From a virus (lineage: Duplodnaviria; Heunggongvirae; Uroviricota; Caudoviricetes): a DNA stretch of 64,000 nucleotides. Position numbers and translations under genes: made by a program. A model generated the notes under the pieces. It was not told where the DNA came from. It saw only the letters and a program-made list of their open reading frames with translations, and did no database searches. The stretch is taken from the IMG/VR virus record IMGVR_UViG_2778261540_000003; one strand, 5' to 3'. Shown here piece by piece: positions 42,208 to 42,228 of the stretch; the first letter of the stretch is position 1, and the number at the start of each line of letters is the position of its first letter.

Positions 42208-42228
42208 GATTCTACCGCTAGTCATTTG
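42208..42228 (-). promoter_or_regulatory. Late-promoter-like element (CAAATGAC-N6-TAGAAT)
   Basis: Minus-strand reading CAAATGACTAGCGGTAGAATC, same motif and spacing to the first ATG as at 11473 and 22419. Confidence 0.5.

Follow-up and report, generated by a model that had tools for sequence, protein, structure and literature searches.

The site under study lies at positions 42209–42227 on the minus strand of the window, by which we mean the whole stretch of viral DNA that was analysed (64,000 nucleotides), and precedes an operon of baseplate and tail genes. A 3-kb piece around it is 99.5% identical to bacteriophage P1 (AF234172, AF234173, NC_005856), a level shared by the P1-like phages JL22, SJ46 and RCS47, and the first 25 kb of the window match a 'Punavirus P1' record from infant faeces at 99.9% identity. 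Overall, the window is 98–99.5% identical to P1 over most of its length. BLAST alignment to P1 returned collinear blocks of 96.6–99.1% identity at 1203–11494, 12871–16313, 17007–30728, 30913–33551, 34648–48267, 55270–63195 and 63196–64000, the last of which wraps to P1 position 1, with replaced segments interrupting them at 1–1202, 11495–12870, 16314–17006 and 48268–55269. By its sequence, this arrangement of collinear blocks and replaced segments identifies the window as a P1-type phage-plasmid that spans the tail-fibre genes through lox. The features relevant to late transcription are as follows, with operons delimited from open reading frames and P1 annotation.

3184–3202, minus strand: LPs (classical Ps), orthologous to AF234172 38318–38336 'late promoter LPs' with one spacer substitution; box AAGTTACTT, spacer ctct, -10 TACAAT; 30 nt upstream of R and serving the tail-fibre genes R, S and U.
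3232–11442, minus strand: LPsit operon, pmgC-tub-pmgB-sit-pmgA-bplA-16 (tail tube, baseplate).
11474–11492, minus strand: LPsit, window variant, orthologous to AF234172 46608–46626 'late promoter LPsit'; box AAATGACAA at 11484–11492, spacer ctcg, -10 TAGAAT at 11474–11479.
17049–22368, minus strand: LP23 operon, genes 23 (major capsid), 22 (sheath) and 21, pmgG and bplB.
22420–22438, minus strand: LP23, an exact match to AF234172 58825–58843 'predicted late promoter LP23'; box AAGTGACTT at 22430–22438, a perfect palindrome, spacer tcaa, -10 TAAAAT at 22420–22425.
37428–42179, minus strand: LP26 operon, genes 26-25-7-24-6-5 (baseplate and tail), about 99% identical to P1.
42209–42227, minus strand: LP26, the flagged site, an exact match to AF234172 78485–78503 'late promoter LP26'; box AAATGACTA at 42219–42227, spacer gcgg, -10 TAGAAT at 42209–42214.
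42219–42237, plus strand: LPpmgL, an exact match to AF234172 78495–78513, annotated as a divergent late promoter facing pmgL and pmgM; box TAGTCATTT, the opposite-strand reading of the LP26 palindrome, spacer gttg, -10 AATATT.
42252–42268: C1 operator O26 (former Op82), an exact match to AF234172 78528–78544.
58299–58315, plus strand: C1 operator Olpa, an exact match to AF234172 89904–89920, overlapping Plpa.
58313–58340, plus strand: sigma-70 promoter Plpa, an exact match to AF234172 89918–89945; early, repressor-controlled, producing Lpa.
58386–58838, plus strand: lpa (gene 10), late promoter activator, identical to P1 Lpa at 150/150 residues.
58870–58888, plus strand: LPpac, an exact match to AF234172 90475–90493 'late promoter LPpac'; box ATGTGACTT, spacer tcgt, -10 TACCCT; 35 nt upstream of pacA and serving pacA and pacB (packaging).

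In AF234172, each of LPsit, LP23 and LP26 is annotated as a 9-bp palindromic '-22 region' with a -10 hexamer and no -35; for LP26 of P1 these elements are placed at 78495–78503 and 78485–78490, respectively. The architecture common to the P1 late-promoter set is a 9-bp box (consensus AAGTGACTT, usually with AC before it), a 4-bp spacer and TAnnnT, and the spacer is exactly 4 bp at all three sites considered here. Agreement with the consensus box is complete at LP23 (9/9, with full dyad symmetry) and partial at LP26 (7/9) and LPsit (6/9), where the symmetry is degenerate; LPsit retains one of four palindromic pairs, most of its dyad symmetry being lost. The annotated P1 sites are degenerate to an equal or similar extent. 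Each -10 hexamer matches TATAAT at five of six positions. A search for TTGACA at a spacing of 16–18 bp found at best 0–2 of six matches across the sites (1/6 at LP26), and a scan for sigma-70 consensus promoters reported none at the three loci. The preliminary description of this DNA had proposed a conserved element upstream of a -10-like hexamer with no -35, which is correct, and had drawn the element as an 8-mer with a 6-bp spacer, which is not: CAARTGAC comprises the best-conserved left part of the 9-bp box and the C preceding it, whereas the real element is two bases longer and its spacer is 4 bp. Intrinsic terminators and known RNA families were also considered for the three sites and were rejected; an Rfam scan placed no family over any of the three.

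Distances to the downstream genes are given as the gap separating the final T of the -10 and the start codon. LPsit lies 31 nt from the ATG of pmgC (11442), in line with the 30–31 nt to a first ATG originally claimed for all three sites, and LP26 lies 29 nt from the ATG of gene 26 (42179). LP23 departs from the claim altogether in having no ATG: reading downstream in frame, a TTG first occurs at 30 nt (22389), and the P1 annotation begins gene 23 at a TTG 51 nt past the -10, at 22368, preceded by AAGGAAGAG. The capsid start annotated in Cronobacter phage JK004, 50 nt downstream of its own -10, agrees with the P1-annotated gene 23 TTG. As a side observation, the gene 23 leader (22368–22420, minus strand) carries CTCTTCC just after the -10, which can pair with GGAAGAG in the Shine-Dalgarno region and would enclose an inner CACAAG/CTTGTG hairpin. 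The folding signal is weak (z = -2.2), and a similar outer helix is kept only partly in the JK004 leader (z = -1.2).

The 20-nt pattern CAARTGACNNNNNNTARAAT (CAARTGAC-N6-TARAAT) has exactly three matches in the 64-kb window, at 11474–11493, 22420–22439 and 42209–42228, all on the minus strand, all intergenic and all co-oriented with the downstream operon. The claim of one motif upstream of three structural operons is borne out by these matches, with the original coordinates extending one base too far at the low end of each site. In 100 dinucleotide-preserving shuffles of the window the pattern had no matches, and none is expected. This 3-versus-0 count is circular, since those very sites had supplied the motif, and an independent weight matrix was therefore used. 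From the 11 late promoters annotated in AF234172, the matrix was trained on the four that lie outside the window, namely LPmat, LPpro, LPlyz and LPdar. Against a random background, the best score in each of 100 Markov-1 windows averages 14.1 bits, with a maximum of 22.6. The five top scores in the window are given below.

3184–3205, minus strand: rank 1, LPs, 24.9 bits.
22420–22441, minus strand: rank 2, LP23, 24.7 bits.
58867–58888, plus strand: rank 3, LPpac, 22.6 bits.
40504–40525, minus strand: rank 4, unannotated in P1, 22.2 bits.
42209–42230, minus strand: rank 5, LP26, 18.9 bits.

Annotated late promoters thus account for four of the five highest scores. LP23 stands alone on its matrix score and LP26 exceeds the typical random maximum. 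The window variant of LPsit scores 10.0 bits, under the typical random maximum of 14.1, and given that score its case needs the evidence of orthology and conservation. LPpmgL is likewise weak with this matrix (10.6 bits). A looser P1-type pattern returned six matches in the window versus 1.1 expected. At a threshold of at least 18 bits, four of the five matrix sites are intergenic versus an intergenic fraction of 9.9% (P = 4.5e-4, with a crude gene map that is 90% coding), and each of the four lies 29–35 nt upstream of a co-directional open reading frame. An equal frequency inside coding regions, which had been named in advance as an outcome that would speak against the motif, is not what these high scorers display. 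The sequence pattern alone is nevertheless not fully specific, in that 40504–40522, the sole coding-region site among the high scorers, scores equally high. One further matrix match, at 51350–51371, was rejected; it has a good box, but lacks a -10 and lies inside an open reading frame.

The same analysis shows that the list of three operons, accurate for its members, is incomplete as a class: LPs, LPpac and LPpmgL had been missed, and the window holds at least six annotated late promoters. A reader working without tools had nonetheless recovered a real regulatory class from raw sequence, with three of the six annotated sites in the window and a slightly truncated consensus.

Comparison with diverged relatives bears on the function of the box. 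Lpa homologues in deposited phages fall into three groups, at ~99–100% identity (P1, P7, SJ46, RCS47 and others), 67% (JK004) and ~31% (phage D6). Scanning JK004 with the P1-derived matrix located sites ahead of its orthologues of the capsid gene, R, gene 26, pacA, prt and pmgC. Alignments present the box and -10 as conserved islands within flanking intergenic DNA that is diverged or unalignable. LP23 shares 22 consecutive invariant nucleotides with JK004, and at LP26 the box and -10 are conserved next to an upstream flank that could not be aligned. The window LPsit differs from that of P1 by T to A at box position 8, and the same A occurs in JK004 and in three Salmonella plasmids. The reverse reading of the LP26 box in JK004 is followed by GAAGCC and so has no -10; because of this, the function of LPpmgL is less certain, and the divergent promoter may be lineage-specific or doubtful.

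Phage D6 presents a different picture. P1-type boxes occur there at background (one versus 2.0 expected), whereas a AAATCACA-type box, AAT[CA]ACA, followed 7–9 nt later by TAnnnT, occurs nine times in D6 (MF356679) versus 1.35 expected. Of these nine elements, eight immediately precede a late gene (capsid, R, lydA, prt, pmgB, ddrB, darB and a peptidoglycan hydrolase); examples on the minus strand of MF356679 are 54124–54143, 38113–38134, 31511–30, 25221–40 and 45491–510. The D6-type element is at background in the window, P1 and JK004. The two kinds of box thus segregate with Lpa type, which is how a recognition site for the activator would be expected to behave. A text search of the literature, with the D6 genome paper (Gilcrease and Casjens 2018) outside its coverage, returned no match for D6 late promoters.

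An activator of the appropriate type is encoded by the window. Its Lpa belongs to PHROG 1704, 'Lpa-like transcriptional activator' (E = 7.6e-85); the NCBIfam models gave no match to Lpa, and a search for structures containing Lpa found none. Lpa is described as a sequence-specific DNA-binding activator thought to act via direct contact with host SspA, an RNA polymerase-associated protein with no late-promoter DNA binding of its own (PMC1891329, in its summary of Hansen et al. 2003). In the P1 literature, the box is assigned to Lpa, late genes require Lpa, lpa is essential, and late transcription starts downstream of the -10 in dependence on Lpa and host SspA.

Overall, we assign a probability of about 94% to the reading that identifies the three sites with LPsit, LP23 and LP26, late promoters of P1, on a P1-type phage-plasmid, each composed of a sigma-70-type -10 and a 9-bp box centred near -22, with no usable -35. 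Evidence for this identity comes from the architecture of the sites, their statistical specificity, their placement before late operons, the missing -35, identity with the annotated sites of P1, conservation in one diverged relative, and an intact lpa with its operator. The original proposal of P1-type activator-dependent late promoters is thereby upheld, as the sites coincide base for base with late-promoter features of AF234172, the surrounding DNA is of P1 type and lpa is present. These sites are already known and annotated in the reference P1 genome, and the finding is correct but ordinary. P1 late promoters and Lpa were reportedly defined in the early 1990s by Lehnherr et al. (1991 and 1992), the co-activator role of SspA is said to date from Hansen et al. 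in 2003, and all three sites are present in the 2004 GenBank annotation of P1 (Lobocka et al.). LP23 carries the label 'predicted' in that P1 record.

By analogy with published P1 work, on which Lpa binding, SspA dependence and transcription start points at the window sites would all rest, inactivation of the C1 repressor would allow the early sigma-70 promoter Plpa, overlapped by Olpa, to express Lpa. Together with SspA associated with host RNA polymerase, Lpa would then enable the sigma-70 holoenzyme to start at late promoters that are otherwise inactive, such that the head, tail, baseplate, tail-fibre, packaging and lysis operons would be switched on together. We infer that the Lpa box is placed next to the SspA-related part of the holoenzyme.

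The alternative that best withstands the data, itself highly improbable, is that the sites are ordinary sigma-70 promoters that need no activator, such as extended -10 promoters, with the shared upstream sequence incidental or UP-like. The -10 hexamers, with five of six consensus matches at all three sites, would suit such promoters, and the P1 record predicts overlapping sigma-70 promoters near some late promoters, such as 'P1 23'. Against this, nothing resembling a -35 is present (0–2/6) and the consensus scan finds no promoter, while the TG at -15/-14 expected of an extended -10 is absent from spacers that read gcgg, tcaa and ctcg. The box also co-varies with Lpa type in D6, and the P1 literature has late genes needing Lpa and lpa being essential.

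Still harder to credit is a role for the palindromic box as the operator of a repressor, or of some different DNA-binding protein (C1, Lxc or a host factor), in place of a role in activation. The box is indeed palindromic and overlaps core promoter space, and a C1 operator does lie near LP26, at 42252–42268. That operator, O26, is however a separate element 24 nt upstream of the LP26 box and no part of the motif. C1 operators have another 17-bp sequence, for example ATTGCTCTAATGTATTG, and are annotated separately; when the 17-bp asymmetric C1 operator (ATTGCTCTAATAAATTT type) was sought at the motif, there was no resemblance, the true operators being those at 42252–42268 and 58299–58315. Moreover, the box keeps a fixed 4-bp distance and orientation to the -10 and occurs only before late operons, and the P1 literature assigns it to Lpa. 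These points favour an activator site.

A functionless origin, through chance resemblance or as what is left of a duplicated sequence, could draw on the circularity of the 3-versus-0 count and on the fact that LPsit alone is not significant with the independent matrix, but is effectively refuted by the recovery of annotated sites with that matrix, the conserved islands in JK004 and the intergenic enrichment (P = 4.5e-4), the flanks of the three sites moreover sharing no similarity.

Read as late promoters, the window sites have their closest counterparts in P1 itself (LPs/Ps, LPsit, LP23, LP26, LPpac and others), with the same elements, position and sequence and with identical or near-identical downstream genes. 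Differences are at strain level only, comprising the A for T at position 8 of the LPsit box, one substitution in the LPs spacer, and replacement of the LPhot segment. D6 and D6-like plasmid prophages likewise combine an upstream box a few base pairs from a TAnnnT -10, no -35, homologous late operons and an Lpa of PHROG 1704, but their box is of the AAATCACA type and not AAGTGACTT, and their Lpa is ~31% identical.

More distant parallels can be drawn in mechanism. The middle promoters of phage T4 consist of a MotA box at -30 and a -10, and AsiA remodels region 4 of sigma-70. As in P1, a phage activator box takes the place of the -35 and works with a sigma-70 -10, and the host sigma-70 holoenzyme is redirected to a temporal class of genes. 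The proteins are nonetheless unrelated, the box stands at -30 and not -22, and region 4 is remodelled by the phage protein AsiA, whereas P1 uses host SspA. In Francisella, PigR and MglA-SspA provide a second parallel, in which a DNA-bound activator is thought to contact an SspA-family dimer riding on RNA polymerase. As presented in PMC1891329, that model is explicitly built on the Lpa-SspA precedent of P1. It differs in serving a bacterial virulence regulon, in its heterodimer of SspA paralogues, and in its DNA element and activator family.

Several further features, if confirmed, would be small additions to P1 biology: a hairpin at LPsit, a site within gene 7, an antisense box at repL, and the distinct box of D6. 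At LPsit, the minus strand carries an inverted repeat, CTCGTAGAATC-N13-GATTCTACGAG, at 11440–11485. As RNA, it forms an 11–12-bp stem with a dG of -24.3 kcal/mol (z = -6.45), and a consensus scan did not find this hairpin terminator-like. The left arm includes the LPsit -10 and the right arm includes GAGG, the Shine-Dalgarno sequence of pmgC. Sampling of covariation from 514 plasmid matches yielded two stem haplotypes only, and across six sequences these differ by one compensatory change, with loops more variable than stems. The change, G to A in the left arm with C to T in the right, is found in JK004 and three Salmonella plasmids; the stems are kept in P1 as well. A search of genome contigs turned up only six loci with PmgC relatives, including two diverged ones (Serratia and Pantoea) with a D6-like gene order, in which pmgC follows directly behind bplB with no promoter, and these two loci say nothing about LPsit.

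The hairpin may represent promoter-dependent translational control, a processing site or a palindromic binding site at the DNA level. Under the first of these, which we regard as doubtful in its specific form, a transcript starting in the loop at LPsit would leave the ribosome site free, and mRNA reading through from the non-late genes upstream, which contains both arms, would have the site hidden, or would be processed or terminated, making translation of pmgC dependent on the promoter used.

The high-scoring candidate in gene 7 (40504–40522, minus strand; matrix span 40504–40525) is not annotated in P1 and consists of AAGTGACTG, the spacer gtga and TAACCT. Its full sequence, AACAAGTGACTGgtgaTAACCT, begins 47 nt past the A of the gene 7 ATG, within coding sequence. 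JK004 gene 7 keeps the box and a TAnnnT hexamer (17/19 nt), and the gene 7 of D6 lies apart from genes 25 and 26, with a D6-type promoter to itself. This site, uncertain in status, may serve genes 24, 6 and 5 as an internal late promoter, or its resemblance may be coincidental, with coding constraint acting on it.

The window contains only one other perfect 9/9 AAGTGACTT box, at 15464–15472 on the minus strand, where it lies antisense to the opening codons of repL. After it come a 4-nt spacer, tagc, then CAGCAT (compare CAGAAT of LPmat) and TACAAT, the whole region covering 15448–15472, and the box overlaps a palindrome, CCAGCATTACAATGCTGG, that surrounds the start codon of repL. P1 has the same sequence at 50726–50744, JK004 is without repL, and the RepL of D6 is only 27% identical. 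This box may act in late antisense transcription as a promoter, or Lpa bound to it may form a roadblock at the lytic replicon.

Other observations concern the mosaic structure of the window. The edge of P1 homology at about 11494–11499 coincides with the upstream edge of the LPsit box, as it does for many P1-like plasmids compared with the window, and the simABC segment of P1 is swapped at 11495–12870 for two minus-strand open reading frames, 11523–12062 and 12066–12587. The ~7-kb segment at 48268–55269 has no nucleotide match to its P1 counterpart, 84543–86875 (pmgT through hot); SJ46, P7 and other P1-like phages cover just 44–60% of it, and parts resemble lambdoid and Stx phages (516 records matched). 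LPhot is therefore absent, and a scan of the replaced segment for an equivalent with variable spacers of 3–10 nt (9 nt in P1) produced no candidate. The P1 coordinate origin (lox) is crossed at 63195/63196, where a weak matrix match at 63174–63195 on the plus strand includes the left half of loxP (ATAACTTCGTATAGCAT). Finally, the segment at 16314–17006 has no nucleotide match in P1, the flanking P1 blocks ending just past repL and restarting within bplB, and contains a sok antitoxin RNA at 16608–16782 on the plus strand (Rfam RF01794, 114.9 bits), which implies a putative hok/sok-type addition module in this P1 variant.
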